Below are positions 3,705 to 40,691 of a DNA stretch of 64,000 nucleotides, piece by piece; the first letter of the stretch is position 1, and the number at the start of each line of letters is the position of its first letter. The notes below the pieces were generated by a model. That model saw nothing but the letters and a program-made list of their open reading frames with translations. It ran no database searches and was not told the origin of the DNA. The stretch comes from a virus. The translations under genes and the position numbers were made by a program. The stretch is from the IMG/VR virus record IMGVR_UViG_3300049855_000348, positions 1-64,000 of that record, one strand, 5' to 3'.

Positions 3705-4262
3705 TCACCTTGGCCGTTTTTGGAAATGCGAAACTTCAGCTTCGAGTCTGGCGATGTCTTGCAGAGCGCCATCGTTTTTATCAACGAGGTTCTGCAATGT
3801 ACTCTTCAGGTTCGAGATCTCATTGGTGGTTGTGGCCTCACTGCGTAAAAGACTGCGAACATCGTCTCTCAACGTGTCCCAGTCTTGACGCTGTGTTTGC
3901 AAACCAGAGATGAGAATCTGAAGACGTGATTCAAGATTCTGTTGCTGTGCGAAATGATTCTGTTGTTCAATGGCACGATCATCAAGACGTTGGTGGATAC
4001 GAGTGATCGCAGCATTGAATTCATTACGAATTATTTCTGAAACATCATCATTACTCTCATTCAGATCGACCTTCACCTGATTGAGATGTTCTTTGACGAT
4101 AGAAGAGATCTTCTCTTCGTGTGGATTTGCTTCCTGATATTTCAGGATCTGTTCGAGCTTGGTGTTGACCTCGCCTTTCCAGATGCCGGCCTGAAAGATC
4201 CAGACAACACATCCACCGCCAGTGATCAGGGCGATGATCGAGATAACGAGGTTCCAGTCCAT
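3705..4262 (-). CDS. N-terminally membrane-anchored coiled-coil protein
   Basis: 185 aa with a hydrophobic N-terminus (WNLVISIIALITGGGCVVWIF) followed by heptad-like Q/E/L-rich sequence. Confidence 0.5.
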   Translation of the reverse strand: MDWNLVISIIALITGGGCVVWIFQAGIWKGEVNTKLEQILKYQEANPHEEKISSIVKEHLNQVKVDLNESNDDVSEIIRNEFNAAITRIHQRLDDRAIEQQNHFAQQQNLESRLQILISGLQTQRQDWDTLRDDVRSLLRSEATTTNEISNLKSTLQNLVDKNDGALQDIARLEAEVSHFQKRPR

Positions 4263-5042: not shown

Positions 5043-5310
5043 CTTTCAATTTGCCACAGCCGCAGGACTTGGAACGACCAGAATAGAGATTTCCCGACAA
5101 AATCAGCACTTCTTTTCCGCAGTCACACCGGCATGCCCAGGCGCGGGAACGTGGGTGGTGCATCGTCACTGGAGCCAGGGCGACCAGCTTTCCGAAGCGT
5201 TGGCCTGTCACATCTTTGGCTCTCACACAACTATGTATGTTGGTTCCGTAGATAAGAATCCCAAGCCTCCACATCCTCCTGAAGGAAAGTCCCATGACCG
5301 AAACCACCAA
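5035..5310 (-). CDS. small Cys-rich (zinc-ribbon-like) protein; start uncertain
   Basis: GQRFGKLVAL...WACRCDCGKEV...SKSCGCGK follows the pattern of a common small phage/bacterial Cys-cluster protein. An alternative GTG start at 5211 would avoid overlap with the divergent 5294 gene. Confidence 0.4.
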   Translation of the reverse strand: MVVSVMGLSFRRMWRLGILIYGTNIHSCVRAKDVTGQRFGKLVALAPVTMHHPRSRAWACRCDCGKEVLILSGNLYSGRSKSCGCGKLKAR

Positions 5311-6552: not shown

Positions 6553-7596
6553 ATGCCGACCAAATCTATCATCCACGAGAGCGTCGTCAGCGTCCTGAAG
6601 GAAGCTGGTGTCAAGCCCAAGGGAAGCGGCATCGCCCCCTCGAACCATCGCGGTCTGCTCGCTGAGAGCGGTCGTGCGGAACTGCTCGACAAGAAGTCGG
6701 TGGCAGTCATCAAGATGCAGTCGCATCCGAAGCTGTCGGACTGCTCTTGGGAAGCCAAGACCGTCGCCGAAGCCAAGACCCAGGCGTTCGCCGCCTGCAA
6801 GAAGGCTGGCGGGTTCGCCATCTTCGAGTCGTGCAAGGACGGCGTGCTGACCTGCCGCTTCACCCGCGACGCCGCCAAGGCGACCGTCAAGGATGAGGCC
6901 ACCCTGGCTGCCAGCATCAAGGAAGACGACGAGACCGACGGCACCGGTGAACCGACCGGCGACACCAAGACCGATGTCGAAGCCAAGAACGACAAGGGCG
7001 TCTCCCTCAAGACCGATGTCCAGGTCGACAACAAGGGCGAGAATCTGGCCGAAGGCGAGAACGAAGTCGAGACCAAGAAGATCTTCGTGAACAAAGAGAA
7101 GCTGGCCAAATACAAGGAACTGATGGCCAAGAAGGCGGAAGCCGCCAAGAAGAAGCCGGCCACTGCCGAAGAGAAGAAGGAAGTCGCCGAGCAGATCGCC
7201 GCCATCGACGCCGAACTCGATCAGATCAGCGAAGAGTTCTACAGCACCCGCTCGAAGACCATCACCTTCGTACTCTACGAAGGTGGCGTTGCTGAAGTCC
7301 ACGGCCTCAACGAAGATGAACTGGCTCCGTTCGGCGGCACCGCCCCGGCGATGCCCGTCCGCTACGCCAAGAAGGCCAAGGATGCTGGTCCGAACAGCAA
7401 GGTCGACATGGGCGTGTTCTCGCTCCAGAAGATCGAAGGCATGGCCGCCCAGTCGGCGACCATCCTCACCGGCAAGGACTTCAAGGCCAATGGCTGGGGA
7501 ACCCCGGGCAAGGGCACCGGCAAGCAGGGCAAGTGGTCGGATACGGGCAAGCACCCGCTCGACTCGGCCAAGAAGCTCAAAGCCGGCCAGGAGTGA
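6553..7596 (+). CDS. Lys/Glu/Ala-rich hypothetical protein (scaffold-like composition), probably highly expressed
   Basis: 347-aa ORF with a Shine-Dalgarno sequence. A strong intrinsic terminator follows immediately. Confidence 0.6.
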   Translation: MPTKSIIHESVVSVLKEAGVKPKGSGIAPSNHRGLLAESGRAELLDKKSVAVIKMQSHPKLSDCSWEAKTVAEAKTQAFAACKKAGGFAIFESCKDGVLTCRFTRDAAKATVKDEATLAASIKEDDETDGTGEPTGDTKTDVEAKNDKGVSLKTDVQVDNKGENLAEGENEVETKKIFVNKEKLAKYKELMAKKAEAAKKKPATAEEKKEVAEQIAAIDAELDQISEEFYSTRSKTITFVLYEGGVAEVHGLNEDELAPFGGTAPAMPVRYAKKAKDAGPNSKVDMGVFSLQKIEGMAAQSATILTGKDFKANGWGTPGKGTGKQGKWSDTGKHPLDSAKKLKAGQE

Positions 7597-14516: not shown

Positions 14517-15059
14517 ATGAGCCCACAAGAGATCATGCGAGCCTACCCAGTAGGCCGCATCCTTGAACTGTCACCTGAGGCGAAGCATCGCATCAAGTTC
14601 CTGGCAGTGTGCCTTGATAACATCGACCTCTGCCAGCGTAAATTGCAAGACAAGCTCGGTGGAATGCATGCAATCGGCCAGCCCGTCACCGGCGAGCAGA
14701 TCACCGAGGTGATCGACAACATGCTCGATGCCCAACCGTTCGAGGGGATGATCTCGCTCACCCTCGGCGAGGGATGGAATGGTCCGGAAGCGATCATCCA
14801 CGCCAAGAATTCGGCTCGATGCCTGCGCAAGGTCATCTGGTCGGTGATCTACGACGATGTCGTCGCCACCTACAGCATCACGTTCTCGGTCTGGAAGAAA
14901 CTCAAGTGCTCGCTGCTGGAGAATCCACCCGGTGGTGGCGTTCTCATTCGTGGCTACGAGTTCGCCGAGAAGGAACTCGGACACGAGGGTAAGTCGAACC
15001 GCCCTGATGTCTGTCCCGACTTCCCACCGATGGGTCTCATGGATGAGGATGAGGAATGA
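14517..15059 (+). CDS. hypothetical protein
   Basis: 180-aa ORF with GAGGA upstream of the ATG. Confidence 0.6.
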   Translation: MSPQEIMRAYPVGRILELSPEAKHRIKFLAVCLDNIDLCQRKLQDKLGGMHAIGQPVTGEQITEVIDNMLDAQPFEGMISLTLGEGWNGPEAIIHAKNSARCLRKVIWSVIYDDVVATYSITFSVWKKLKCSLLENPPGGGVLIRGYEFAEKELGHEGKSNRPDVCPDFPPMGLMDEDEE

Positions 15060-16957
15060 GCAACCTCAACCAAATCATGGAAGCGATCATGTGCTCGGAC
15101 ACCGGCGAGGAGGTCGACACCGACCCGATCGTTGGCCAGCTTGCCGGTGGAAACGCCGTCAGTTGGAAACCGTCTGACCAGATGCTTCAGGCTGCTGCCT
15201 CCCTCGGTTACGGCCAAGGCGTCTCACAGTTGAAGCCGATGATGACCCCCAAGGGTCGTCTGATCGGCTTCCCCTTCCCGACCCCACGTCCCTTTCAACT
15301 TGAAGCTGTGGATGCCGTGCTCGAAGAGTTCAAGGCCGGCAACAACGTTCTATTCGAGGCTGGTACCGGGTTCGGTAAGTCACCACTGGAGATCGGTGTC
15401 GTCTCGGCCTTCCAGTCCGCCTACCTGCTCATCGGTCGCAATGATCTGGTCGACCAATGGGAGCGTGACTTCGATCACTTCAGCAAGATCGGCTTCTACA
15501 AAGCTCGTGCTCGCTTCGACTGCACAGAGATCTCCGGCGATCGTGGCCCTCTCAACTGTTCCCAGGCCAAGACCCCCTGCGGCAAGAAGCGCCAGAGCAA
15601 AGACAACGACTGCCAAGCCTGCCCCTACGCCGTGAATCGTGATGTGGCGCTCGCCAAGCCCTACACCGTGATGACGCTGTCCCTGGGGATGACCATCTTC
15701 AAACACCTCCAGATGCACCCTGGCGTGACCAAGCGTGACGTGATGGTGATCGACGAGTGCTCAGAGCTTGAGTCTGAGATCATGAAGTTCTTCGAGTTCC
15801 AGGTGTCGACCAAGACGCTCTTCCGGGCAATTCAGAAGACGATCACCATGGGTCAGTTCTTCAGCGAAGGGGATGATTTCTATAGCCGCTGGCCGAACGT
15901 CACGCCCAGCACCAACTTCGCCATCGCCATCAACCAAATGCGCCCGATTTCAGACACCTCCGCCTGCTTCCGTTGGGCGATCGAGATCTCAGGCATTGCC
16001 CAGCAACGCATGAACTGGCTTGGTGCCGGCCAGAAGTCCGAGGAGGCTGAGAAGATCGCCGAAGCCTGCGAACAGATCATCCGCATGTGCAAGCAGGTGA
16101 TCGACGCCATCGGCGACAACGTGCCCTACTTCGGGGAGATGGTCCCAGATGAGGTTGATGGCACCTACAAGGTCCGCGTCTCCCCCCTGGAGGCTAAGGG
16201 CATGCTGAGGCGTCTCCTGGCCCCGTACGCGAAACATCTCCTGTTCGTGAGTGCTACGACCGGGTCAGCCGAGATGTTCGCTAGAACGCACTCCCTGCCC
16301 AAGGAAGCGCCTGTCGTCAAGGTGACCGCCCCGTCCGGCTTCCCGGTGGCCAATCGTATGGTCTACAACCTGCGTGCCGGCAACATGAGTAACAAGACCC
16401 AGGTGGCCGACTCCCCCTTGGTCCTGAAGATGCTGGTCGACCTCGCCACCCAACGCCAGTCAGAGCAGCCCCGGTTCGATCACATCAACCAGAAGGGCAT
16501 CATCCACACCTACAACAACAAGATCACGGACATGGTCCTGGAAGCCTTCCGGTCGGCTGGCCTTGGTCACCGGGTGATCCCTCTCAAGGGGTCTGGCAAG
16601 GCTCGTGAGCAGGCCATGGAGATCTTCACCAAGACCACCCAGCCGCTGATCCTGGTCAGTCCCTCGGCGATGCTCGGCCTGTCTCTGAATGACGATCTGG
16701 CCCGCTGGCAGGCCATCGTGAAGGTACCGTACCCGTACCTCGGGGATCAGAGCATTGCCCATCGCAAGGAGACAATCGCAGGCTGGTACGAGTGGCAGAC
16801 CGCCAAGGATCTGATCCAGACCTTCGGTCGCATCGTGCGCTCAGACAGCGACTGGGGATCCACCTACATCCTCGACGACGCCTTCACCGGGTTCTACTCC
16901 CGCAACAGTGATCTCTTTCCTGCGTTCATCCGCGAAGCCATCTGGCAGAAGCCGTGA
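15056..16957 (+). CDS. XPD/DinG-family (Rad3-like) ATP-dependent DNA helicase with a 4-Cys Fe-S-type insertion
   Basis: Walker A FEAGTGFGKS, a DEAH-like VIDECSE, and the Cys cluster C..C..C...C..C between motifs I and II. The C-terminal FGRIVRSDSDWGSTYILDDAF is typical of DinG/XPD. Confidence 0.75.
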   Translation: MSNLNQIMEAIMCSDTGEEVDTDPIVGQLAGGNAVSWKPSDQMLQAAASLGYGQGVSQLKPMMTPKGRLIGFPFPTPRPFQLEAVDAVLEEFKAGNNVLFEAGTGFGKSPLEIGVVSAFQSAYLLIGRNDLVDQWERDFDHFSKIGFYKARARFDCTEISGDRGPLNCSQAKTPCGKKRQSKDNDCQACPYAVNRDVALAKPYTVMTLSLGMTIFKHLQMHPGVTKRDVMVIDECSELESEIMKFFEFQVSTKTLFRAIQKTITMGQFFSEGDDFYSRWPNVTPSTNFAIAINQMRPISDTSACFRWAIEISGIAQQRMNWLGAGQKSEEAEKIAEACEQIIRMCKQVIDAIGDNVPYFGEMVPDEVDGTYKVRVSPLEAKGMLRRLLAPYAKHLLFVSATTGSAEMFARTHSLPKEAPVVKVTAPSGFPVANRMVYNLRAGNMSNKTQVADSPLVLKMLVDLATQRQSEQPRFDHINQKGIIHTYNNKITDMVLEAFRSAGLGHRVIPLKGSGKAREQAMEIFTKTTQPLILVSPSAMLGLSLNDDLARWQAIVKVPYPYLGDQSIAHRKETIAGWYEWQTAKDLIQTFGRIVRSDSDWGSTYILDDAFTGFYSRNSDLFPAFIREAIWQKP

Positions 16958-17612: not shown

Positions 17613-17859
17613 AAAAGTTCCATTCGTCCAAGAACCAGACACGTTCATCACTGCAAAACCAGTCGAGAAAAAGGCTGGGAAGCAATGGGTCGTGAAGAAA
17701 GTTCACACCACTATCAAAATCATGGATCAAGATATTCCAATGAAAGATCCAGAAAGTGGTGTGGTTGGTTTTCTGCCAGTTCTGGATGATTATGAGAAAG
17801 CACTTCGTTTCGTAGATGGTGATAGAAGTCTTCTAGCCGGTATCGAACCGGTCACTTGA
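17605..17859 (+). CDS. small hypothetical protein
   Basis: 84 aa. It overlaps the upstream stop, and its own stop overlaps the 5' end of the first tRNA-like RNA. Confidence 0.5.
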   Translation: MPEKVPFVQEPDTFITAKPVEKKAGKQWVVKKVHTTIKIMDQDIPMKDPESGVVGFLPVLDDYEKALRFVDGDRSLLAGIEPVT

Positions 17860-18008
17860 CTCCTATGGTAGCCGTGAAAGCGCAAGGTGTAAAACCCCCA
17901 GGCGAGTAGAACGGAAGGAATCCGAAGTGGGTAGTTGACCAAGCTGTGGCCACAGCCGTCAGCGAGAGCGGAGGAGATAGGTGGGTTCGATTCCTGCCGG
18001 AGTCACCA
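17858..18008 (+). ncRNA. 151-nt tRNA-like RNA with an acceptor stem, T-arm and encoded CCA but a greatly expanded body
   Basis: 5' GACTCC pairs with 3' GGAGTC-A-CCA. The T-arm is GTGGG-TTCGATT-CCTGC. The body carries a copy of the CAAGG..CCCCCAG loop motif and a GCTGTGGCCACAGC palindrome. Confidence 0.5.
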
Positions 18009-18055: not shown

Positions 18056-18308
18056 AAGAACCTACGACACACTTGCCAAATTGTTCTTGCAACTGAAATC
18101 AGTCTTGCTACACCTCCACGTACCAGCCATGAGACCTCTCACCTCCATACCAGCCGTTCGCGCCACCAAGTGGCAAGCGAAGCCCATGACCAAAACGGTC
18201 AATGGCGCACAGGGTTGCTTTGGAGTGACAACTGAACGCAATCAGGCCGATCACATTCCGGAACCAGGGTTCATGTAGCAGACAAGGGTAAAACCTCCAA
18301 GCCACATG

Positions 18309-18350
18309 AACCCCGGGACCAAAAAGTCTCGGGGTTCTTCTTTTTCTGAT
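18309..18350 (+). terminator. terminator-like hairpin with a T-rich tail
   Basis: AACCCCGGGAC-caaaaa-GTCTCGGGGTT followed by CTTCTTTTT. Confidence 0.55.
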
Positions 18351-18490: not shown

Positions 18491-18565
18491 CGTCGAGTAT
18501 TTCAGCGGAAGAATATCTGCATGACATGCAGAAGGTCGGTGGTTCGATCCCACCCTCGACGACCA
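18491..18565 (+). tRNA. tRNA-Val(GAC)
   Basis: 75 nt. Acceptor cgtcgag/ctcgacg, T-arm ggtgg-ttcgatc-ccacc, anticodon arm tctgc-atGACat-gcaga, CCA encoded. Confidence 0.7.
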
Positions 18566-18570
18566 AACAA

Positions 18571-18648
18571 TGCGGAGTAACTGGAGATGGAACCAGCCCA
18601 GCCTCATAAGCTGAACAAACGTGTGTTCGAGTCACACCTCCGCAACCA
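18571..18648 (+). tRNA. tRNA-Met or Ile2 (CAT)
   Basis: 78 nt. Acceptor tgcggag/ctccgca, D-stem ctgg/ccag, anticodon loop ctCATaa, T-arm gtgtg-ttcgagt-cacac, CCA encoded. Confidence 0.7.
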
Positions 18649-18650
18649 TT

Positions 18651-18839
18651 TGCAAGGACCTCTCTGCCCACCATCTCGATCCTAAGAAGAAAGAAGACAA
18701 CATCGGTACGATGGTCAGAAGAAGAGTGGCTATCAAAACTTTGGAAATCGAACTGCAAAAGTGTCTCTGCGTGTGTGAGAACTGTCATCGCAAGATCCAT
18801 GCAGGTATCATCAAACCTTTTCTCAGTGCTGGATCATGA
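18651..18839 (+). pseudogene. HNH endonuclease remnant (HNH core only, no credible start)
   Basis: The frame reads ...SAHHLDPKKKEDNIG...CLCVCENCHRKIHAG.., the H-H...N...CxxCH..H core. There is no ATG upstream of the HH, and the ORF-track start lies inside the tRNA-Met. Confidence 0.5.
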
Positions 18840-18886
18840 CCGAACGCCTGTGGTCATTCCCTGGCGGGCACTCGGATTCTTCACAT

Positions 18887-18963
18887 GGTGGTCGTAGCTC
18901 AATGGATAGAGCACTGGACTGTGGCTCCAGCGGCTGTGGGTTCGACTCCCATCGATCACACCA
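18887..18963 (+). tRNA. tRNA-His(GTG)
   Basis: An extra 5' G (G-1), acceptor gtggtcg/cgatcac, D-arm gctc-aatggata-gagc, anticodon loop ctGTGgc, CCA encoded. Confidence 0.8.
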
Positions 18964-19047
18964 GTTCATTGTGCGGAGTACGCGCCTGACCCAGGCAAGA
19001 GGGTTTGCTCTAACCTCCCAGAGAAGAACGGGAGGTTGCTTCGGCAT

Positions 19048-19121
19048 GGCTTGGTCGCTCAACGGCAGGGCGCTGGTTTGAAAAACCAGAGACGAAGGTT
19101 CGACTCCTTCTCAAGCCACCA
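19048..19121 (+). tRNA. tRNA-Phe(GAA)
   Basis: 74 nt. Anticodon arm ctggt-ttGAAaa-accag, T-arm gaagg-ttcgact-ccttc, CCA encoded. Confidence 0.8.
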
Positions 19122-19133
19122 TCTCCTTCTCAC

Positions 19134-19211
19134 GGTCGGTTCACTGCATGGTGCAGTGTGCGCAAGGACAGTCCCCTAAGCACGGCGGTTCGATTCCCCG
19201 GCTGACCACCA
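19134..19211 (+). ncRNA. tRNA-like RNA A: normal acceptor, D-arm, T-loop and CCA but no canonical anticodon arm
   Basis: Acceptor ggtcggt/gctgacc and D-arm actg-catggtg-cagt. The 26 nt at the anticodon position form only gtgc/gcac around an 18-nt loop, gcAAGGacagtCCCCTAAgc. No 5-bp/7-nt arm is found in any register. Confidence 0.5.
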
Positions 19212-19221
19212 TTTTTTTCAT

Positions 19222-19294
19222 CGGCTGGAATAGGTGCGCGTAAGGCATCAGATCCCCTCAAGCGATGGAGGTTCGATTCCTCCCTGGCCGACCA
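19222..19294 (+). ncRNA. tRNA-like RNA B: 7-bp acceptor, T-arm and CCA with a 38-nt non-cloverleaf body
   Basis: Acceptor cggctgg/ctggccg and T-arm ggagg-ttcgatt-cctcc. The body contains cgc-GTAAGGcatcagatCCCCTCAA-gcg. Confidence 0.5.
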
Positions 19295-19407
19295 AGTACG
19301 ACTTCTCGGGTTCCGCAAGGAACGATCGTCCTACTGGCTACAACGGTGAAAATCCGGTGGATGCCAGAGGTGGTGGGATGGCTCACCAAATAAACTGAGA
19401 CTCATAA
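19295..19407 (+). ncRNA. structured spacer RNA (GNRA-capped helices), homologous at its 3' end to 19485..19592
   Basis: Helices gttcc-GCAA-ggaac, ctggc...gccag enclosing ccgg-tgaaaat-ccgg, and ggtg...cacc, followed by AAATAAACTGAGACT. Confidence 0.4.
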
Positions 19408-19484
19408 GCACCGATCGGCTGGTGGAAAAGCTACCTCCCTTTCAAGGAGATTCTTCGCGGGTTCGACTCCCGTTCGGTGTACCA
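19408..19484 (+). tRNA. tRNA-Glu(TTC)
   Basis: 77 nt. Acceptor gcaccga/tcggtgt, anticodon loop ctTTCaa, T-arm gcggg-ttcgact-cccgt, CCA encoded. Confidence 0.75.
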
Positions 19485-19592
19485 ACGACGGAGCACAGTG
19501 ATCGAAAGATCGACCGGCTAGGCAACTCGCAAGAGTGCTCGAAAGGGCGGAGTCTAGTGGGGTGTAAGCACCTCGAATAAACTGTGAGTTAT
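19485..19592 (+). ncRNA. structured spacer RNA (GAAA- and GCAA-capped helices)
   Basis: Helices gatc-GAAA-gatc, actc-GCAA-gagt, gagcac...gtgctc and ggtg-taag-cacc, followed by GAATAAACTGTGAGTT. Confidence 0.4.
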
Positions 19593-19666
19593 GGTCCTTT
19601 CTGTCAGTGGCAGGCAGCCTGATTCTCAGTCAGACAACGTCGGTTCGATTCCGACAAGGACTACCA
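19593..19666 (+). tRNA. tRNA-Glu(CTC)
   Basis: 74 nt. Acceptor ggtcctt/aaggact, D-arm tgtc-agtggca-ggca, anticodon loop ttCTCag, T-arm gtcgg-ttcgatt-ccgac, CCA encoded. Confidence 0.65.
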
Positions 19667-19670
19667 GCAA

Positions 19671-19766
19671 GAGCGGGACACTGGTTCGAGGCCAGTCATC
19701 GCAAGATGTAGCTCAGGGTGAAAACGTAAGGCATCAAACCCCCAAGTAATCCGGAAGAGCACGCTC
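19671..19766 (+). ncRNA. circularly permuted tRNA-like RNA X1 (T-arm, then GCAA-capped acceptor-like hairpin, then D-arm; the termini form the anticodon-like stem)
   Basis: GAGCG-ggac-ACTGG-ttcgagg-CCAGT-CATC-gcaa-GATG-ta-GCTC-[42-nt insert with GTAAGGcatcaaaCCCCCAAG]-GAGC-a-CGCTC. Every helix was read directly. Confidence 0.55.
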
Positions 19767-19771
19767 TATTT

Positions 19772-19849
19772 GTTCCTGAGGACTAACGGCTAGGTCACCT
19801 CCCTGTCACGGAGTCATTCAAGTGGGTTCAACTCCCATCAGGAACGCCA
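19772..19849 (+). tRNA. tRNA-Asp(GTC)
   Basis: 78 nt. Acceptor gttcctg/caggaac, anticodon loop ctGTCac, T-arm gtggg-ttcaact-cccat, CCA encoded. Confidence 0.75.
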
Positions 19850-19853
19850 ACAT

Positions 19854-19927
19854 CCACGCTTCGTCTAATGGCAGGGCACCGATCTGATACGTCGGATACC
19901 AAGGTTCGATTCCTTGAGCGTGGACCA
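19854..19927 (+). tRNA. tRNA-Ile(GAT)
   Basis: 74 nt. Acceptor ccacgct/agcgtgg, anticodon arm ccgat-ctGATac-gtcgg, T-arm caagg-ttcgatt-ccttg, CCA encoded. Confidence 0.75.
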
Positions 19928-19941
19928 CTTCAGTTTCACAT

Positions 19942-20016
19942 TGTGGGATGGCCTATGTGGTAGGGCACCCGGTTGTTACCCGGACTATACTGGTTCGACT
20001 CCAGTTCCCACAGCCA
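19942..20016 (+). tRNA. tRNA-Asn(GTT)
   Basis: 75 nt. Acceptor tgtggga/tcccaca, anticodon loop ttGTTac, T-arm actgg-ttcgact-ccagt, CCA encoded. Confidence 0.75.
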
Positions 20017-20021
20017 CTTTT

Positions 20022-20097
20022 GGGGTCGTAGCTCAATTGGCAGAGCACCTGTTTTGCACGCAGGATGTTAGCGGTTCAAGTCCGCTCGATTCCACCA
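20022..20097 (+). tRNA. tRNA-Ala(TGC)
   Basis: 76 nt. G3:T70 wobble present, anticodon arm cctgt-ttTGCac-gcagg, CCA encoded. Confidence 0.8.
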
Positions 20098-20167
20098 CGC
20101 GGGAGTAATCTGAGAAATCAGAGAGAATTACCAGCCTCACAGCCGGCAAGGAGTAGACTGTGGTTTT

Positions 20168-20243
20168 GGGGAGTTAGCTCATCTGGTAGAGCGCGAGCAT
20201 GGCATGTTCGAGGCGAGGAGTTCAAGTCTCCTACTCTCCACCA
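20168..20243 (+). tRNA. tRNA-Ala(GGC)
   Basis: 76 nt. G3:T70 wobble present, anticodon arm cgagc-atGGCat-gttcg, CCA encoded. Confidence 0.75.
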
Positions 20244-20602
20244 CTTTCAATCATACGGGCGGCGATATCTCAGAAGCGTAAGGATGATCCCCCAAGTTAT
20301 GAGAAAATCCTATGGGGTGAAAGCCCTCAACTGTCCACCACTCGATCGGAACGTCAGTCGCAGCGTAAGGCTTTTATCAAATCCCCAAGCTGTGCAGTAA
20401 CGCAACTGCTGGTGAAAGACCAGCCTGATCACTCTTCAAACGAAACCCTGGCGGTGAAAAACCGCTTCCTCGGCGCATCCCCTACGTTGGTCTACCTCTG
20501 AAGTTTATCGACCCAGGGCTTCGTGTTTCTGCTAGCTAGATTCATGGGTACCATCAGCGACATCGACGATCAACTCTACGTTCAGCACATCAAGTAACGC
20601 AT
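20244..20602 (+). ncRNA. about 360-nt non-tRNA structured region rich in GNRA-capped helices, with two copies of the GTAAGG..CCCCAAG loop motif
   Basis: Helices gggt-GAAA-gccc, gctggt-GAAA-gaccagc, gcggt-gaaaa-accgc, gcagt-aacgca-actgc and cagc-[GTAAGGcttttatcaaatCCCCAA]-gctg. The only ORFs are short and overlap tRNAs. Confidence 0.4.
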
Positions 20603-20677
20603 ACGTCGATAGCTCCAATGTAGAGCGACGGTTTCCAAAACCGTTGGTTGGGGGTTCAAGTCCCTCTCGACGTGCCA
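20603..20677 (+). tRNA. tRNA-Trp(CCA)
   Basis: 75 nt. Acceptor acgtcga/tcgacgt, anticodon arm acggt-ttCCAaa-accgt, CCA end encoded. Confidence 0.8.
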
Positions 20678-20682
20678 TTCAC

Positions 20683-20757
20683 TGAGAGATAGTTCAACGG
20701 TAGAACGCTGCCCTCTGGAGGCAGATGCTAGAGGTTCGAGTCCTCTTCTCTCAACCA
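20683..20757 (+). tRNA. tRNA-Gln(CTG)
   Basis: 75 nt. Anticodon arm ctgcc-ctCTGga-ggcag, T-arm agagg-ttcgagt-cctct, CCA encoded. Confidence 0.8.
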
Positions 20758-20760
20758 CAC

Positions 20761-20835
20761 TCAGGAATAGTTCAACGGTAGAACGCTGACCTTTGGAGTC
20801 AGTTGCTCCAGGTTCGAGTCCTGGTTCCTGAACCA
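20761..20835 (+). tRNA. tRNA-Gln(TTG)
   Basis: 75 nt. Anticodon arm ctgac-ctTTGga-gtcag, T-arm ccagg-ttcgagt-cctgg, CCA encoded. Confidence 0.8.
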
Positions 20836-20843
20836 TTTCACAT

Positions 20844-20922
20844 CTGCGTGTAGCTCAGCCTGGAACAGAGCACTTGCCTTGGGAGCAAGGGGTCGGAGGT
20901 TCAAATCCTCTCACGTAGACCA
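20844..20922 (+). tRNA. tRNA-Pro(TGG)
   Basis: 79 nt. Anticodon arm cttgc-ctTGGga-gcaag, T-arm ggagg-ttcaaat-cctct, CCA encoded. Confidence 0.8.
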
Positions 20923-20927
20923 TTCAT

Positions 20928-21009
20928 GACGGTCGAGTCGAAAGTCGGGCGCTCCGGCATCAGATTGCAACCCTGATGACAGGTGGTTGAACTCCACCGA
21001 TCGTCTCCA
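20928..21009 (+). tRNA. tRNA-Cys(GCA) with an enlarged (about 14-nt) D-loop
   Basis: 82 nt. Acceptor gacggtc/gatcgtc, D-stem gtcg/cggc, anticodon loop ttGCAac with an A:C at the 31:39 pair, T-arm ggtgg-ttgaact-ccacc, CCA encoded. Confidence 0.55.
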
Positions 21010-21014
21010 TTCAC

Positions 21015-21090
21015 GTGTGTGTATCTCAGTGGCTAGAGAGCTTCCTTGCCAAGGAAGAGGTCGCAGGTTCAAGTCCTGTCACACACTCCA
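21015..21090 (+). tRNA. tRNA-Gly(GCC)
   Basis: 76 nt. Anticodon arm cttcc-ttGCCaa-ggaag, CCA encoded. Confidence 0.8.
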
Positions 21091-21092
21091 AC

Positions 21093-21161
21093 AGGGGCAA
21101 ATGCGGGTTCAACTCCCGCTGCGACTTCGGTCGTATCGTCTAACCCGGTAGGACGGCCCCA
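21093..21161 (+). ncRNA. circularly permuted tRNA-like core X2 (T-arm, then UUCG-capped acceptor-like hairpin, then D-arm); further helices extend to about 21282
   Basis: aGGGG-caaat-GCGGG-ttcaact-CCCGC-t-GCGAC-ttcg-GTCGT-at-CGTC-taacccggtag-GACG-g-CCCC. Downstream helices are ccgtgcgg/ccgcacgg and ccgctc/gagcgg. Confidence 0.5.
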
Positions 21162-21282
21162 CCCCGTGCGGATTGGATACCCGCACGGAATCCGAAGTCC
21201 TCAGGTTCAAGCCAAGGCAACCGCTCGCCGAGCGGAATACAAAATGCGGCTAGAGCAGGGGAGCACGAACGTGGCCCCGTTT

Positions 21283-21356
21283 GCCGATGTAGGTCAATGG
21301 TAGATCTGCTGCCTTCCAAGCAGAGGACGCGGGTTCGATTCCCGCCATCGGCTCCA
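21283..21356 (+). tRNA. tRNA-Gly(TCC)
   Basis: 74 nt. Acceptor gccgatg/catcggc, anticodon loop ctTCCaa, T-arm gcggg-ttcgatt-cccgc, CCA encoded. Confidence 0.8.
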
Positions 21357-21360
21357 TCAT

Positions 21361-21436
21361 GTGTGCCTAGCTCAATGGATAGAGCATCTGACTACGGATC
21401 AGAAGGTTGAAGGTTCGAGTCCTTCGGTACACGCCA
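21361..21436 (+). tRNA. tRNA-Arg(ACG)
   Basis: 76 nt. Anticodon arm tctga-ctACGga-tcaga, T-arm gaagg-ttcgagt-ccttc, CCA encoded. Confidence 0.8.
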
Positions 21437-21469
21437 TTGCATAGCGATCTTTTTGGCTAGCATGTAACC

Positions 21470-21997
21470 ATGTCACTCAAAGATGCCCTCTTTCACTTTC
21501 GTGATCTTGGTTACTACGTTGATGATCAAGGAAATGTATTCAACCCAAGAGGAAAGATTCTTCGGTGTTCAACAAACAAAGATGGTTACAAAAGAATTAC
21601 CACAAGAATGAGAAATCATCCAGTTCATGGGGATTGGTGCCCTAAGGTTGAGGTTCACCGTCTTGCCGGTTATCAGAAGTTCGGAGACAAAATCTTCACC
21701 GAAGGACTTGAGATCTGTCACGATGATGGCGATAAGCGAAACAACGCCAAAGACAATCTGCGACTCGATACGCACAAAAGTAATATGATGGATGTTCCTC
21801 AAGAGGTAAGGATCAATAGAGCAAGACGTGCTGGTAGAGAACATGCCAAGCTAACAGATGAGCAGGTTGCTCACATTCGTTCATCTGGCATGACTCTGAA
21901 ACAGATCATGCAAACATACGGTATCAGTAAGTCTGGTGCCTCCTACGTCAGATCAGGAAAGACTTACGCCAGCCCGTGTATCCCCTCGCTTTCCTAA
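21470..21997 (+). CDS. HNH (HNH_3-type) homing endonuclease with a C-terminal HTH
   Basis: 175 aa with ...GYKRITT...EVHRLAGYQKFG...EICHDDGDKRNNAKDNLRLDTHKSN.. and LTDEQVAHIRSSGMTLKQIMQTYGISKSG. The gene is AT-richer than its surroundings and is embedded in the tRNA array. Confidence 0.75.
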   Translation: MSLKDALFHFRDLGYYVDDQGNVFNPRGKILRCSTNKDGYKRITTRMRNHPVHGDWCPKVEVHRLAGYQKFGDKIFTEGLEICHDDGDKRNNAKDNLRLDTHKSNMMDVPQEVRINRARRAGREHAKLTDEQVAHIRSSGMTLKQIMQTYGISKSGASYVRSGKTYASPCIPSLS

Positions 21998-22051
21998 AGC
22001 GGTGAAAGGGTAACTGGACACATGCAGGTTCAAATCCTGCCTCGGGTACCA
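21972..22051 (+). ncRNA. atypical tRNA-like RNA E1 (possible tRNA-Arg(CCT) lacking a D-arm)
   Basis: Acceptor gcccgtg/ctcgggt (one T:T mismatch), then 7 nt, then arm tcgct-ttCCTaa-agcgg, then 21 nt, then T-arm gcagg-ttcaaat-cctgc and A-CCA. Its 5' end overlaps the HNH gene's 3' end. Confidence 0.4.
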
Positions 22052-22054
22052 CAT

Positions 22055-22132
22055 CGGGGTCCTAGTACGGGAGTGTCTGCATACCATTCGGTCACTACAG
22101 CCTCGGCGGTTCAATCCCGCCAACCTCGACCA
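22055..22132 (+). ncRNA. tRNA-like RNA with acceptor, T-arm and CCA but a long hairpin in place of the D and anticodon arms
   Basis: Acceptor cggggtc/aacctcg (6 of 7 pairs) and T-arm ggcgg-ttcaatc-ccgcc. The body forms agtgtctg-cataccatt-cggtcact, an 8-bp stem with a T:T mismatch and a 9-nt loop. Confidence 0.4.
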
Positions 22133-22135
22133 CAT

Positions 22136-22211
22136 GCGATCGTATTTCAATTGGAAGAACACCACCCTCCGAAGGTGGAAGGTGCAGGTTCGAGTCCTGC
22201 CGATCGCGCCA
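22136..22211 (+). tRNA. tRNA-Arg(CCG)
   Basis: 76 nt. Anticodon arm ccacc-ctCCGaa-ggtgg, T-arm gcagg-ttcgagt-cctgc, CCA encoded. Confidence 0.8.
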
Positions 22212-22214
22212 TCT

Positions 22215-22290
22215 GGTGACGTAGCTCAATGGACAGAGCTTCCAGCTTCTACCTGGATGGTTGGAGGTTCGAGTCCTCCCGTCATCGCCA
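22215..22290 (+). tRNA. tRNA-Arg(TCT)
   Basis: 76 nt. Anticodon arm tccag-ctTCTac-ctgga, T-arm ggagg-ttcgagt-cctcc, CCA encoded. Confidence 0.8.
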
Positions 22291-22294
22291 TCAT

Positions 22295-22369
22295 GCTGCC
22301 ATAGCCGAGTGGTAAGGCACTTCATTCGTAACGAAGAGACCGGGTGTTCGATTCACCCTGGCAGCACCA
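22295..22369 (+). tRNA. tRNA-Thr(CGT)
   Basis: 75 nt. Acceptor gctgcca/tggcagc, anticodon loop ttCGTaa, T-arm gggtg-ttcgatt-caccc, CCA encoded. Confidence 0.7.
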
Positions 22370-22373
22370 TCAC

Positions 22374-22449
22374 GCCCCCATAGCTCAGTTGGTAGAGCAA
22401 CAGTTTTGTAAACTGTAGGTCGTCGGTTCGATCCCGACTGGTGGCTCCA
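22374..22449 (+). tRNA. tRNA-Thr(TGT)
   Basis: 76 nt. Anticodon arm acagt-ttTGTaa-actgt, T-arm gtcgg-ttcgatc-ccgac, CCA encoded. Confidence 0.8.
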
Positions 22450-22456
22450 TTTTCAC

Positions 22457-22530
22457 GCTGCTATAGTTCAGTGGTAAAACACGTCCTTGGTAAGGACGAG
22501 CCCCAGGTTCAATTCCTGGTAGCAGCACCA
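22457..22530 (+). tRNA. tRNA-Thr(GGT)
   Basis: 74 nt. Anticodon arm cgtcc-ttGGTaa-ggacg, T-arm ccagg-ttcaatt-cctgg, CCA encoded. Confidence 0.8.
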
Positions 22531-22535
22531 TTCAT

Positions 22536-22611
22536 CCATCAGTAGCGTAATTGGCAGCGCAGCGGGTTTTTACCCCGTGGGTTGTGAGTTCGACTCTCAC
22601 CTGATGGACCA
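22536..22611 (+). tRNA. tRNA-Lys(TTT)
   Basis: 76 nt. Anticodon arm gcggg-ttTTTac-cccgt, T-arm gtgag-ttcgact-ctcac, CCA encoded. Confidence 0.8.
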
Positions 22612-22617
22612 TCGCAT

Positions 22618-22693
22618 GCATCCATAGCTCAACTGGCAGAGCACTCGGTTCTTACCCAAGGGGTTGGAGGTTCAAATCCTCCTGGATGCACCA
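22618..22693 (+). tRNA. tRNA-Lys(CTT)
   Basis: 76 nt. Acceptor gcatcca/tggatgc, anticodon loop ttCTTac, T-arm ggagg-ttcaaat-cctcc, CCA encoded. Confidence 0.75.
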
Positions 22694-22707
22694 TCATTAC
22701 ATAAGTC

Positions 22708-22941
22708 ATGCCAGCATGGAAATGGATGATCCTGAAGTTCTGTACCAGAGCGCATTTCATGCGGCTCATAGCAACCTTGATCATCCTCATCGCAGGCTTT
22801 CAATCTCTCTACTACCAGAAGATTGAAGACACGTGGTTGATCCTGGTTGGTGCAGTGATGAACCACTACTTCAACCACAAAGAAGCTGCGAACGTCACGG
22901 AAGAAGACAAGAATCCGGACGACGAATGCAAGGTCGGTTAG
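22708..22941 (+). CDS. small two-TM membrane protein (hypothetical) inside the tRNA array
   Basis: 77-aa ORF with two hydrophobic segments (LIATLIILIAGF and WLILVGAVM). Its 3' end overlaps the next tRNA by 10 nt. Confidence 0.4.
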   Translation: MPAWKWMILKFCTRAHFMRLIATLIILIAGFQSLYYQKIEDTWLILVGAVMNHYFNHKEAANVTEEDKNPDDECKVG

Positions 22942-23006
22942 TTCAGCGGTAGAACGCTTCTCTTACACGGAAGATGTCGGGGGTTCGATCCCCTCACCGA
23001 CTACCA
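22932..23006 (+). tRNA. tRNA-Val(TAC)
   Basis: 75 nt. Acceptor ggtcggt/accgact, anticodon arm cttct-ctTACac-ggaag, T-arm ggggg-ttcgatc-ccctc, CCA encoded. Confidence 0.8.
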
Positions 23007-23011
23007 CTTGC

Positions 23012-23091
23012 CGGTCTGTATCGGCTCGGTCTTATAAGCCGTCGAAACCGTAATTGGTTACATGAGGGTTCGACTCCCTCCAGACCGACCA
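23012..23091 (+). ncRNA. atypical tRNA-like RNA E2 (possible tRNA-Ile(TAT) lacking a D-arm); same architecture as E1
   Basis: Perfect acceptor cggtctg/cagaccg, then 8 nt, then arm cggt-ctTATaa-gccg, then 22 nt with an aacc/ggtt hairpin, then T-arm gaggg-ttcgact-ccctc and A-CCA. It lies immediately upstream of an HNH gene. Confidence 0.4.
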
Positions 23092-23126
23092 CAAGGCTTC
23101 CACGATTCCCCTCCAAGGAGAACGCC

Positions 23127-23678
23127 ATGGCACCCGGTGCCTGCATAGTGCTGAACAACTCGTATGCCTTCCTCTCGATCAACAACTGGTTCGAGGCGAT
23201 GCGTCTCGTCGTCCGTGGCCGCGCCGTGCCGCTGGCAAACTACGAGACCAAGATCCGGGCAGAGCGTGAAGAGTTCGACGCACCAGCAGTCGTGATGCTG
23301 AAGCACCACGTGAACCTGGGGCGGAGAAGGCAACCTTTCACCCTGCCATCACATCGCAACATCTGGGTCCGTGATGGTGGGCACTGCGCCTACTGCAATC
23401 ACCCGCTGACGCTGCGGACAGTGACCAAGGAACACGTGATGCCCAGGTCACGCGGTGGAGAAGACAGCCTCTTGAACGTCGTGTCCGCCTGTGGCGACTG
23501 CAACGCCAAGAAGTCGAACCGCACGCCGGCAGAAGCCGGCATGAAGTTCCGTGACGGCATCGAACTGCGTCACCTCAACGATGAGGAGAAGCTGACGGTG
23601 CTGCTCAAGACCTCCCAGAGCCACGAACGGAAGACGTGGCTGGGGTTCCTCAAGAAGCAGGGTCTGACGCTGTTCTGA
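23127..23678 (+). CDS. HNH endonuclease (McrA-like)
   Basis: ATG at 23127 after AAGGAGAA. Motifs CAYCNH...EHVMPRSRGGEDSLLNVVSACGDCNAKKSN are present. The longer ORF-track start at 22974 runs through tRNAs and was rejected. Confidence 0.75.
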   Translation: MAPGACIVLNNSYAFLSINNWFEAMRLVVRGRAVPLANYETKIRAEREEFDAPAVVMLKHHVNLGRRRQPFTLPSHRNIWVRDGGHCAYCNHPLTLRTVTKEHVMPRSRGGEDSLLNVVSACGDCNAKKSNRTPAEAGMKFRDGIELRHLNDEEKLTVLLKTSQSHERKTWLGFLKKQGLTLF

Positions 23679-23896: not shown

Positions 23897-24578
23897 TCAC
23901 TCCATCAAGCCGTCCAGGTCCCCCTTCATCCAAGCACGCACCGTGATGGATCGCCCTGTGCGGTGGTCCCTCACGTTGTCGTTCTGCACCTGGATGGTGC
24001 GGATCTTGTCACCACGCTCGCCGGAGCCTATCTGCTGCCGGCGATCGTCGTTTTGATCGGTATGGTGTTGGGTAGCGATGCCCCCCGCCAGACGCTCCTG
24101 TAACAGGGCCATGGCAGCATGCTTGTTCGACAACTGGTGGCGCTCTTTGTCGGCACGGACAGTCATGCCCGTCGGACGATGGGTGATCTGCACACCCGAC
24201 TCAGTCTTGTTGCGGTGCTGACCACCTGGGCCAGATCCACGGACGGTGATGATATCCAGGTCGCGTTCATCCAGCACGAACTTCTGCTGCTGGCTTCCAT
24301 CGATCACCGCCACGGTGACCGTCGAGCTATGGACACGACCCTTGCGCTCAGTGGGTGGAACCCGCTGCCAACGATGGCCGCCTGCTTCTTGGCTGAAGGC
24401 TTCTTTGGCTCCCTTACCAGTAACGGTGAGCCGCAGAAAGCCGTGAGACTCTTGATCCACTACAACTTCAAAGACCCCTCCGCGCTCCCCATTTGCGATA
24501 GATGGTGAGGTGTTCGCGCACGAGCAATCGTGCGTCCTCGCCGCCTTCAGCGGCTCTGATTTCGAGGTGGATAGTCAT
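23897..24578 (-). CDS. RF1-like peptide chain release factor lacking domain 1; needs a +1 ribosomal frameshift at CTT TGA: join(24578..24471, 24469..23897) on the minus strand
   Basis: Frame 0 reads MTIHLEIRAAEGGEDARLLVREHLTIYRKWGARRGL then TGA. The +1 frame continues EVVVDQESHGF...GGHRWQRVPPTERKGRVHSSTVTVAV...GSGPGGQHRNKTESGV (a PxT-like PPT and the GGQ motif). The slip site is cGGAGGGGT CTT TGA A. Confidence 0.8.
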
Positions 24579-39878: not shown

Positions 39879-39967
39879 TGGCGGAAGTGGCACGAATCGA
39901 ACGTGCAAGACCCGTGAAGGTCTGTTGAGGTTCAAGCTCAGTCCCCTCGCCTATAGGGAGCACTTCC
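39879..39967 (-). tRNA. tRNA-Ser(TGA), class II
   Basis: 89 nt. Acceptor ggaagtg/cacttcc, anticodon loop ctTGAac, long variable arm agacc-ttcac-gggtct, T-arm gcacg-ttcgatt-cgtgc, CCA encoded. Confidence 0.75.
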
Positions 39968-39972
39968 ATGAA

Positions 39973-40064
39973 TGGCGGATACGGCAGGATTTGAACCTGC
40001 GGGTGACTTGCGCCACCTCCTAGTTTCGAGCTAGGTGCGATAAGCCGGGCTCTGCCACGTATCC
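39973..40064 (-). tRNA. tRNA-Ser(CGA), class II
   Basis: 92 nt. Anticodon arm cctag-ctCGAaa-ctagg, long variable arm, CCA encoded. Confidence 0.75.
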
Positions 40065-40069
40065 ATGAA

Positions 40070-40162
40070 TGGCGGATTGCTAGGGAGTCGGACCCTCAAC
40101 GTGTTTCCACGTTTCATCGCTTTCCAGGCGAGTACGGTTAGCCACCACCGTCAACACAATCC
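40070..40162 (-). tRNA. tRNA-Ser(GGA), class II
   Basis: 93 nt. Anticodon loop ctGGAaa, variable arm aacgtg-gaaa-cacgtt, T-loop tccgact, CCA encoded. Confidence 0.65.
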
Positions 40163-40167
40163 ATGAA

Positions 40168-40259
40168 TGGCGGAACGGGTGAGATTTGAACTCACGGGTG
40201 ACTTTCGCCACCTCTTCCTTAGCAAGGAAGTGCAATAGGCCAGACTCTGCCACCGTTCC
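40168..40259 (-). tRNA. tRNA-Ser(GCT), class II
   Basis: 92 nt. Anticodon arm cttcc-ttGCTaa-ggaag, long variable arm, CCA encoded. Confidence 0.75.
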
Positions 40260-40263
40260 ATGA

Positions 40264-40347: not shown

Positions 40348-40351
40348 AAGT

Positions 40352-40429: not shown

Positions 40430-40430
40430 G

Positions 40431-40507: not shown

Positions 40508-40513
40508 GTGAAA

Positions 40514-40599: not shown

Positions 40600-40609
40600 A
40601 GATGAAAAA

Positions 40610-40688: not shown

Positions 40689-40691
40689 ATG

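Follow-up and report, generated by a model that had tools for sequence, protein, structure and literature searches.

Transfer RNA (tRNA) arrays of large phages are discussed chiefly as codon supplements or as a counter to tRNA-targeting immunity. In transfer-messenger RNA (tmRNA), the tRNA-like domain combines an acceptor stem with a T arm, lacks an anticodon arm, undergoes RNase P maturation and carries a CCA end; other hallmarks of tmRNA are a G3-U70 pair that confers alanine identity, pseudoknots and a reading frame for the tag. A tRNA whose anticodon stem-loop is swapped for a foreign hairpin gives a correctly processed, stable RNA in E. coli (PMC3753655). The Y RNAs YrlA and YrlB (RF02553) join a tRNA-like domain (T arm, D arm and acceptor-like stem) to a protein-binding module, and mycobacteriophages encode them (PMC4201824). 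In YrlA the domain is permuted, and its acceptor-like stem-loop is closed; Ro60 binds the stem made by the two RNA ends, in which GNCGAAN0-1G lies, and the YrlA genes adjoin that of Ro60. RNase P cleaves the M. smegmatis YrlA, to which CCA is also added (PMC4201824). The tRNA cluster of phage T4 yields RNA C and RNA D, two small stable non-tRNA RNAs (PMC3014915). In this study, we analysed a stretch of 64,000 nt of phage DNA (positions 1 to 64,000 of IMG/VR record IMGVR_UViG_3300049855_000348; the whole stretch is called the window) and, within its tRNA array, two neighbouring RNAs at 19134-19294, RNA A and RNA B. On balance, we lean towards the view that they represent a lineage-specific family of non-decoding, tRNA-shaped RNAs in which a hairpin module is displayed as the effector on a natural 'tRNA scaffold'. 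The class of tRNA-like non-coding RNAs is already known, and the new part is the module.

RNA A and RNA B sit between tRNA-Phe and tRNA-Glu, with tRNA-like spacing. A sequence-only reading of the window had described them as CCA-ending tRNA mimics with an intact acceptor but no anticodon arm, and had expected tRNA finders to reject them. Both the anatomy and the finders agreed with this description. A canonical anticodon arm (5-bp stem, 7-nt loop, U33) is present in neither RNA, and a 3-5-bp helix around a 16-26-nt motif-bearing region stands in its position. The sequence also confirms that GUGC/GCAC closes an 18-nt motif-bearing loop in RNA A and that a 38-nt body of RNA B holds the same motif (Table 1). 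Neither RNA has a canonical D arm (3-4-bp stem, 7-11-nt loop, G18 G19). The 'perfect D-arm' assigned earlier to RNA A is indeed a fully paired hairpin, but with 7 bp and a 3-nt loop it is not a canonical D arm. Among the six family members with a D-position hairpin, five have GG in the loop (UGG, AGG, AAGGC, UCUGGUU and UUGGUUC) and the member from contig L182 has UGU. The members that retain GG in this place could form an elbow contact of the tRNA type.

ARAGORN called neither RNA in its default mode or in its intron mode, and the Rfam tRNA model gave no match over them even at E<=10. When the 173 nt were searched alone, Rfam matched RNA A as tRNA-Sec at 16.8 bits (threshold 47) and RNA B through its T arm only. 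With the ARAGORN thresholds lowered to 80%, forced cloverleaves appeared, Pro(AGG) for RNA A and Leu(CAG) for RNA B. Their anticodon stems are mismatched, and both A34 and a tRNA-Leu without a long arm are implausible. No Rfam family matched RNA A or RNA B. A tRNA-Sec or allo-tRNA identity was dropped in view of the low score, as was that of a 'missing tRNA-Cys', since a Cys-like gene is present elsewhere in the array. The preQ1, twister and pistol models and other small ribozymes and riboswitches gave no Rfam match even at E<=10 and were likewise dropped as identities of the module. The called tRNAs of the window serve 19 amino acids and an odd candidate at ~20928-21012 would serve Cys; there is therefore no missing tRNA for RNA A or RNA B to supply.

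Relatives were found through homologues of the helicase encoded just upstream of the array. Syntenic arrays are present in four other contigs, which come from related metagenomic phages and whose helicases are 83% (L121), 59% (L120 and L181) and 54% (L182) identical to that of the window. Directly after tRNA-Phe, each of them has an orthologue of RNA A (L121 4899-4973, L181 5257-5338, L182 2971-3051 and L120 13133-13205). All five RNA A orthologues, that of the window included, lack the anticodon arm, carry the same module and end in CCA, and the slot between tRNA-Phe and tRNA-Glu is the same in the five contigs. Relatives of the RNA B type lie at L121 6704-6776, L121 4985-5067, L120 14515-14597 and L182 3057-3129. 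The stems were examined in ten tRNA-shaped members, using 7 nt at the 5' end and 28 nt at the 3' end in a fixed register; fixed-register pair counts were used because the 5' parts misalign in the MAFFT whole-RNA alignment (RNAalifold). In the acceptor and T stems, 93.3% of the cells were paired, compared with 64.1% in shuffles and 42-63% in slid controls, and there were 34 double-sided changes (12.9 in shuffles). All ten members have 5-7 of the 7 acceptor pairs, N73 and an encoded CCA; the discriminator is A in seven, U in two and G in one. T loops among the members include UUCGAUU, UUAGAUU, UUAAAAU and UGCAAUU. Between the window and L120, RNA A is conserved at an identity of 0.69 and RNA B at 0.72; both values lie among those of bona fide tRNAs (0.61-0.93). 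The conserved position, the stem covariation and the tRNA-like divergence therefore indicate maintained genes, not decaying tRNA copies.

The most conserved feature of these RNAs is the module, which has ~26 conserved positions. Its anatomy was derived from ~25 instances in the five contigs. It opens with one strand of a closing helix (3-6 bp), followed by the 5' strand G-Y-A-A and by GG. A variable loop poor in G, 3-12 nt long, then leads to CCC(C/U), 0-2 nt and A-A (in short, a 3' strand C-Y-(N0-2)-A-A), and the second strand of the helix completes the module. Without exception the 5' strand is a tetranucleotide of GNRA type, with GCAA, GUAA and GAAA as its forms. On the 3' strand, CCUAA(G/A) was read four times, and most other copies have C-C-C-(C)-A-A-G. 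GG is followed by A in only about one copy out of two, and by C, U or G in the rest. The closing helix takes many forms (GUGC/GCAC, UCGC/GCGA, AUGC/GCAU, UCGU/ACGA, CAGC/GCUG, AACC/GGUU, GGC/GUC and GCCGGC/GCCGGU). Its pairing reached 81% versus 62% in shuffles and 20-41% in slid controls, with 17 double changes versus 6.1. A reading of the module as a K-turn was rejected, as there are no tandem G-A pairs. Anecdotal look-alikes in 5S rRNA, 16S helix 27, 23S rRNA and the telomerase template were also set aside; the window has no TTGGGG repeats.

The motif pattern matched six times in the window (0.84 expected) and orthologues with covarying stems exist in four other contigs, so that the pattern shared by these RNAs exceeds chance. 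Six or seven module copies were recognised in the window, every one on the sense strand of the plus-strand array, and the second tRNA array (39879-40769, minus strand) has no copy by either the regular expression or the covariance model. The covariance model was trained on the window, L120 and L121, and L181 and L182 were left out. It found six copies in the window (21-30 bits), all on the plus strand of the array, with the next best match at 13 bits, and six instances in the untrained L181 and L182 (19-29 bits); in unrelated phage loci (1.2 Mb), the best match reached 16.6 bits. When the regular expression was combined with a pairing requirement, 14 sense-strand matches were obtained across the five arrays. 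The background was four matches in 2.83 Mb of other loci, three of them from loci fetched by a motif-containing pattern, and one match in an additional 1.54 Mb.

The family was searched for elsewhere. In IMG/VR, a strict motif pattern gave 0 matches and a loose pattern of motif plus T arm gave ordinary tRNAs only. Pattern scans returned 53 loci from JGI metagenomes, all ordinary tRNAs or chance, and 23 loci from GTDB genomes, none related. blastn of the RNAs against 50,697 phage records found nothing. Helicase-based retrieval from IMG/VR gave nothing, or relatives at only 23-26% identity without tRNAs, and helicase relatives at 36-39% identity had no array downstream. On the data at hand, the family appears to be specific to this phage lineage. 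Two unrelated loci were seen along the way. One is a dense array of 31 tRNAs in 8 kb on a contig of a Planctomycetota metagenome-assembled genome (L185, CAVVSQ010000006.1; also L137, L138 and L150), in which a tRNA with anticodon loop CCCUCAA (C33) is a chance match to the search pattern. The other is a metagenomic RNA candidate on the reverse strand of L166 (~1330-1460), with a CACCAGG/CCUGGUG stem around two T-arm-like hairpins.

The window (G+C = 55%) comes from a novel tailed phage, for which blastn found no close relative among the phage records. It encodes a gp5-like baseplate protein, a Rad3/DinG-type helicase, a MazG-like pyrophosphatase and HNH endonucleases, and its DnaE-type polymerase is only ~25% identical to Streptomyces phage counterparts. 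By default, ARAGORN called 33 tRNAs, 25 on the plus strand (18491-23006) and 8 on the minus strand (39879-40769); Rfam adds tRNA-Asp at 19772-19846, giving ~34 in total. All tRNAs of both arrays have an encoded CCA. The plus-strand array extends over ~4.6 kb, and many of its neighbouring tRNAs are 3-8 nt apart. The single strong plus-strand terminator of the region (18308-18337) lies immediately 5' of the array. The array is probably transcribed as one long unit, because no plus-strand terminator-like site is predicted within it.

We propose the following course of events. A long array precursor would be transcribed through the tRNAs and the tRNA-shaped RNAs alike. The tRNA-like minihelix and elbow would make the latter follow their tRNA neighbours through maturation at the 5' end, by RNase P, and at the 3' end, giving abundant, nuclease-resistant RNAs of ~75 nt that end in CCA. 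The tRNA part would thus serve as a scaffold, and the module, at the anticodon-arm position, would be the selected effector. Four conserved adenines lie in an internal loop of the module beside G:C pairs, as would suit a protein that docks there specifically or an RNA-RNA contact of the A-minor type. Since the window holds six or seven copies, the RNAs may titrate a factor of phage or host origin, as a sponge or decoy would, or may assemble it at several sites. By analogy, this scaffold logic would match that of the engineered tRNA scaffold and of YrlA-type Y RNAs. A further proposal is possible, and we regard it as rather doubtful: that these are a new class of phage non-coding RNAs, tRNA-scaffolded aptamers made via tRNA transcription and maturation, which capture or disable a specific host factor, for instance one of immunity or translation control, or dock onto the translation machinery as the phage takes over.

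Several observations weigh against a displayed effector on a tRNA scaffold. The sample consists of five contigs of one lineage, and the covariation counts are partly inflated by shared ancestry and paralogy. Module instances and helix boundaries and registers were picked by eye. The inner GG:CC step of the module is invariant, so that covariation can give it no support and we infer its pairing. The T stem of RNA A is weak; the sequence-only reading had taken both T arms as intact, which is right for the perfect arm of RNA B and overstated for RNA A, where 3 of the 5 positions pair. Folding energies were not better than those of shuffled sequences (z = -0.87 and -0.06), which we took as neutral. 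One module-bearing member, 20344-20431, lacks CCA and some copies stand in simple hairpins, so that a tRNA scaffold is not a strict requirement. Finally, scanning of the window's open reading frames (ORFs) with Pfam, PHROGs and PADLOC gave no candidate partner, that is, no Ro60, RNA ligase, CCA-adding enzyme or known RNA-binding protein.

The family is defined by the hairpin module and not by the CCA end, and it has at least five members in the window (Table 1). Beyond what had been noticed earlier, the module is also found in scaffolds with divergent T arms, in one CCA-less scaffold and in plain hairpins. Of the two similar cases that the sequence-only reading had named, 17858-18008 has the motif, a T arm and CCA; 22055-22132 has the T arm and CCA and lacks an anticodon arm, but does not carry the motif. 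The 17858-18008 RNA has an orthologue at L121 ~3790-3947 (module 3826-3854). Counterparts of the copy at 19722-19749 likewise lie 5' of tRNA-Asp at L121 ~5775 and L182 4113-4140, and the architecture of 20257-20340 recurs at L120 ~14715-14795 and L121 ~6790-6880.

Table 1. Coordinates of RNA A, RNA B and other module-bearing or tRNA-like elements in the window
Feature	Position	Strand	Description
RNA A	19134..19211	+	78 nt, tRNA-shaped
RNA A acceptor	19134-19140 with 19201-19207	+	GGUCGGU/GCUGACC; 5 Watson-Crick pairs and 2 G-U
RNA A D-position hairpin	19142-19158	+	CACUGCA-UGG-UGCAGUG; 7 bp, all paired, 3-nt loop UGG
RNA A module, covariance model	19158-19183	+	29.8 bits
RNA A module closing helix	19159-19161 with 19180-19182	+	(G)UGC/GCA(C)
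RNA A module loop	19162-19179	+	18 nt, GCAAGGACAGUCCCCUAA
RNA A T arm	19184-19200	+	loop UUCGAUU; stem 3/5 paired
RNA A 3' end	A73 = 19208; CCA = 19209-19211	+	encoded
RNA B	19222..19294	+	73 nt, tRNA-shaped; 38-nt body with the motif of RNA A
RNA B acceptor	19222-19228 with 19284-19290	+	CGGCUGG/CUGGCCG, 7 pairs
RNA B single strand at D position	19229-19236	+	AAUAGGUG; GG kept
RNA B module, covariance model	19236-19265	+	26.9 bits
RNA B module closing helix	19237-19239 with 19262-19264	+	CGC/GCG
RNA B module loop	19240-19261	+	closed by CGC/GCG: GUAAGGCAUCAGAUCCCCUCAA
RNA B T arm	19267-19283	+	GGAGG-UUCGAUU-CCUCC, fully paired
RNA B 3' end	A73 = 19291; CCA = 19292-19294	+	encoded
151-nt tRNA-like RNA	17858..18008	+	begins at the stop codon of the upstream ORF; acceptor-like stem, T arm, ACCA
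Module of 151-nt RNA	17880-17903	+	GUGAAA before it; covariance model 21.4 bits at 17878-17905
10-mer in extra domain of 151-nt RNA	17919-17928	+	AAUCCGAAGU
Possibly related variant hairpin	18281..18302	+	(GC)AGAC-AAGGG-UAAAA-CCUCC-AA-GC; unmatched by covariance model
Module copy	19722..19749	+	in isolated D-arm-like stem GCUC...GAGC (~19690-19760), 5' of tRNA-Asp; 24.6 bits
84-nt module-bearing tRNA-like RNA	20257..20340	+	closing stem GGGCGG/CUGUCC; ends A-CCA; covariance model 28.3 bits
Parts of 20257-20340	module core 20274-20299; T-like arm	+	T-like arm UGGGG-UGAAAGC-CCUCA; minimum-free-energy fold
Module-bearing tRNA-like RNA without CCA	20344..20431	+	closing stem GAUCGG/CUGAUC; covariance model 27.3 bits
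Parts of 20344-20431	module 20361-20392; T-like arm	+	T-like arm CUGG-UGAAAGA-CCAG; fold
Anticodon-less tRNA-like RNA of another type, no module	22055..22132	+	G3-U70, A73, CCA, T arm
U-G-A-A-A-R-N-type hairpins	17873, 19345, 19717, 20316, 20411, 20453, 22001; also 18396, 18456	+	

We keep as a live alternative, at a low probability, RNA-RNA docking, in which the adenine-rich internal loop, as a tertiary-contact element of GNRA-like or receptor-like type, contacts array RNAs, tRNAs or rRNA for higher-order RNA assembly or tRNA tethering. The invariably GNRA-type 5' strand of the module would suit this role, and the four CCUAA(G/A) 3' strands resemble one strand of the 11-nt GAAA tetraloop receptor, whose consensus is 5'-UAUGG-3' with 5'-CCUAAG-3'. 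That consensus is nevertheless not matched, as the module has YAAGG and the U is usually C, and the resemblance itself comes from pattern matching. Two features of the array would fit docking: it is enriched in hairpins whose loops read U-G-A-A-A-R-N, and a covarying GNRA hairpin (GCAA in the window, GAAA in L121) follows RNA B. RNA A and RNA B, on the other hand, have no GAAA-type loop of their own, and no partner helix covaries with the module. Adenine stacks formed by GNRA-like sequences that are divided between the strands of internal loops are known to make long-range A-minor contacts (PMC12550061).

Similarly unlikely is a role as acceptor-end decoys, in which abundant CCA minihelices soak up toxins or enzymes that modify or cleave tRNAs at the 3' end or the elbow (nucleotidyltransferase and pyrophosphokinase toxins and RNases, for example). 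The sequence-only reading had put forward such decoys or sponges as a speculative role, with primers or chaperones as further options. The N73-CCA and covarying acceptor and T stems of all ten tRNA-shaped members would fit it, as would the heavy investment of the phage in translation (~34 tRNAs and a release-factor-like GGQ protein). This explanation leaves the most conserved part of the RNAs, an internal module and not the acceptor end, unexplained, however, and the discriminator varies. The CCA-less member and the plain-hairpin copies speak against it, and CCA ends are already supplied by 34 real tRNAs. A link to a 'synthetase-like' gene at 43593-44246 had been suggested in the sequence-only reading and found no support: the RelA_SpoT match reached 23.2 bits against a Pfam threshold of 27, and the product matched no solved structure at E<=1e-3 and no defence-system profile.

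It is improbable that the RNAs are cis elements of the array precursor with no function as free RNAs, acting as punctuation, as a folding aid, in guiding RNase P or RNase E, or in blocking exonuclease or Rho. The sense-strand placement of all copies between the tRNAs of one transcription unit, with tRNA-like spacing, is what such elements would show. Punctuation, though, needs no sequence-specific internal loop kept at 54-83% helicase identity; the second array does without any copy, and many tRNAs of the plus-strand array abut at 3-8 nt without such elements. Least credible are decaying pseudogenes of duplicated tRNAs whose anticodon arm was lost, or decoding tRNAs with an aberrant anticodon loop: the array does hold degenerate tRNAs (21972-22051, 28 bits; the Cys-like ~20928-21012 with its 9-nt loop) and ARAGORN can be forced to Pro(AGG) and Leu(CAG) models, but stems paired at 93% over ten members covary, divergence equals that of functional tRNAs, all five RNA A orthologues share the module in place of an anticodon arm, the forced models are implausible, and 19 amino acids plus the Cys candidate are already covered.

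Other features of the array were recorded. The tRNA-Arg(CCU) at 21972-22051 has an intact anticodon loop (UUCCUAA), has lost the D arm and has a 22-nt variable region. Its Rfam score lies below the threshold of 29, it overlaps the 3' end of the HNH ORF 21470-21997, and its L120 orthologue (15828-15902) is a normal tRNA. The tRNA-Cys(GCA) candidate at ~20928-21012 was missed by both ARAGORN and Rfam; it has a 7-bp acceptor, U73 and a T loop UUGAACU. Its D region is aberrantly long, and its anticodon loop seems to have 9 nt. A canonical tRNA-Cys stands at the syntenic place in L120 (15231-15304). Two further elements were left uncalled. The one at 40262-40348 (minus strand) has a T arm, CCA and a 5-bp arm with loop CCUAAAC (C33; UAA). 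The one at 23010-23092 (plus strand) has a T arm and CCA, matches tRNA-Sec weakly (26.6 bits) and overlaps the annotated start of an HNH ORF. HNH homing-endonuclease genes lie inside the arrays of the window (18621-18839, 21470-21997 and 22974-23678), of L120 (13710-14222 and 17528-18079) and of L182 (3529-4098), and their insertion points differ between the arrays of related phages. A gene for a truncated release-factor-like protein of 187 residues adjoins the array (23897-24460, minus strand). Its product has a GGQ RF-1 domain (93 bits) and only the C-terminal portion of a PCRF domain, and we presume it to be like PrfH-type rescue factors.

The anticodon-less RNA 22055-22132 has an irregular CUGCA..ACC-AUUC-GGU..UACAG in place of the anticodon arm, and its G3-U70 and A73 resemble the alanine identity; G3-U70 is also present in 20257-20340. 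It is 92% identical to L120 15905-15982, and among 24 bona fide tRNA pairs (61-93%) only tRNA-Trp (93%) is higher. Its conserved 28-mer gave 0 matches in IMG/VR. Upstream of the array, the variant hairpin 18281-18302 lies between the stop of a 49-codon ORF (18129-18278) and the terminator 18308-18337, and counterparts with covarying stems are present in L120, L121, L127, L181 and L182. Counting the window, six of six related contigs have the 49-codon ORF, with the motifs WQ..GCF..ERNDHIP, between the helicase module and the array. In each case a covarying, loosely module-like hairpin (18262-18307 in the window) comes next, and then a terminator. The ORF product matched no protein family; the ORF may be functionally tied to the array RNAs.

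Hairpins with 7-nt loops U-G-A-A-A-R-N (or GAGAAAU) account for 7 of the 20 NGUGAAAN sites of the window. Their loops fit the T-loop consensus and take the T-arm position in 20257-20340 and 20344-20431. One of these hairpins, GCGGU-GAAAA-ACCGC, is also lambda boxB-like; boxB or an N-utilisation hairpin was rejected, as the fifth loop base and the closing pair vary and the T-loop reading fits better. The GNRA-capped hairpin directly 3' of RNA B (19310-19323, GUUCC-GCAA-GGAAC) is part of another structured RNA, 19296-19390, which ends in ...CUCACCA. Its covarying L121 counterpart at ~5094-5106 reads GCUC-GAAA-GAGC.

A permuted tRNA-like element lies at 21091-21282, with a counterpart at L120 15384-15598. 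It comprises a T arm (21103-21119), a UUCG-capped acceptor-like hairpin (21120-21135) and a D-like arm with GG (~21136-21155); in L120 the acceptor-like hairpin has a CCA triloop in place of UUCG. This layout is the YrlA/Y-RNA architecture, and the Rfam YrlA model scored 27.3 bits, far under its threshold of 69. Junctions between tRNAs are known false positives of this model. The 10-mer AAUCCGAAGU occurs twice in the window, in the 151-nt RNA and in this element (21189-21198), and resembles, with one mismatch, the Ro60-contact sequences of Y RNAs, GGUCCGA and GNCGAAN0-1G (PMC4201824).

These data indicate that a phage tRNA array can also house a conserved, non-decoding tRNA-shaped RNA family built around a new structured module. 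If expressed, the family would show that the engineered tRNA scaffold has a counterpart in nature. Expressed RNAs would also offer an entry to the role of non-tRNA RNAs in phage tRNA clusters and to the factor bound by the module, which is small and present in multiple copies. For annotation, a caution follows in that tRNA finders silently pass over such genes.

Comparison with known systems places the RNAs as follows. Against tmRNA, RNA A and RNA B have no G3-U70 and only 73-78 nt; ARAGORN found no tmRNA in the window even at 70% thresholds, and the Rfam tmRNA match on the two RNAs covers the T arm only (15.5 bits; threshold 84). CsrA/RsmA sponge RNAs carry repeated A(N)GGA with GGA in hairpin loops. 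In the module, GGA occurs in about half of the copies and is not conserved, and a CsrA site would leave the conserved C-run unexplained; this candidate was rejected. The module resembles the 11-nt GAAA receptor in its asymmetric internal loop, in the conserved adenines by tandem G:C pairs and in the CCUAAG of some copies. It differs in that its 5' strand is invariably Y-A-A-G-G, not UAUGG, and that the U is usually C. Compared with UAA/GAN-type GNRA-like internal loops, it has no GAN strand; the likeness to either kind is only a lead (PMC12550061).

In genomic setting, T4 RNA C and RNA D are the closest. The likeness is one of position inside a phage tRNA cluster, a positional class only; blastn of the phage records detected no sequence relationship, and the module is not reported for RNA C or RNA D. 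In logic, YrlA and YrlB are the closest natural analogues, but RNA A and RNA B do not have their defining features. They have open, CCA-ending acceptors, lack GNCGAAN0-1G and gave no Rfam YrlA match. No TROVE (Ro60) domain was found in the 49 window ORFs scanned with Pfam, and most of the 220-kb genome lies outside the window. In architecture, the engineered tRNA scaffold is the closest (Ponchon and Dardel; PMC3753655). It keeps the acceptor, T arm and D region while a hairpin replaces the anticodon stem-loop, and RNA A is built exactly so; class-2 members such as RNA B differ in having no D hairpin. The engineered scaffold is a laboratory design, whereas the arrangement described here is natural, conserved, present in several paralogues and devoted to one specific module.

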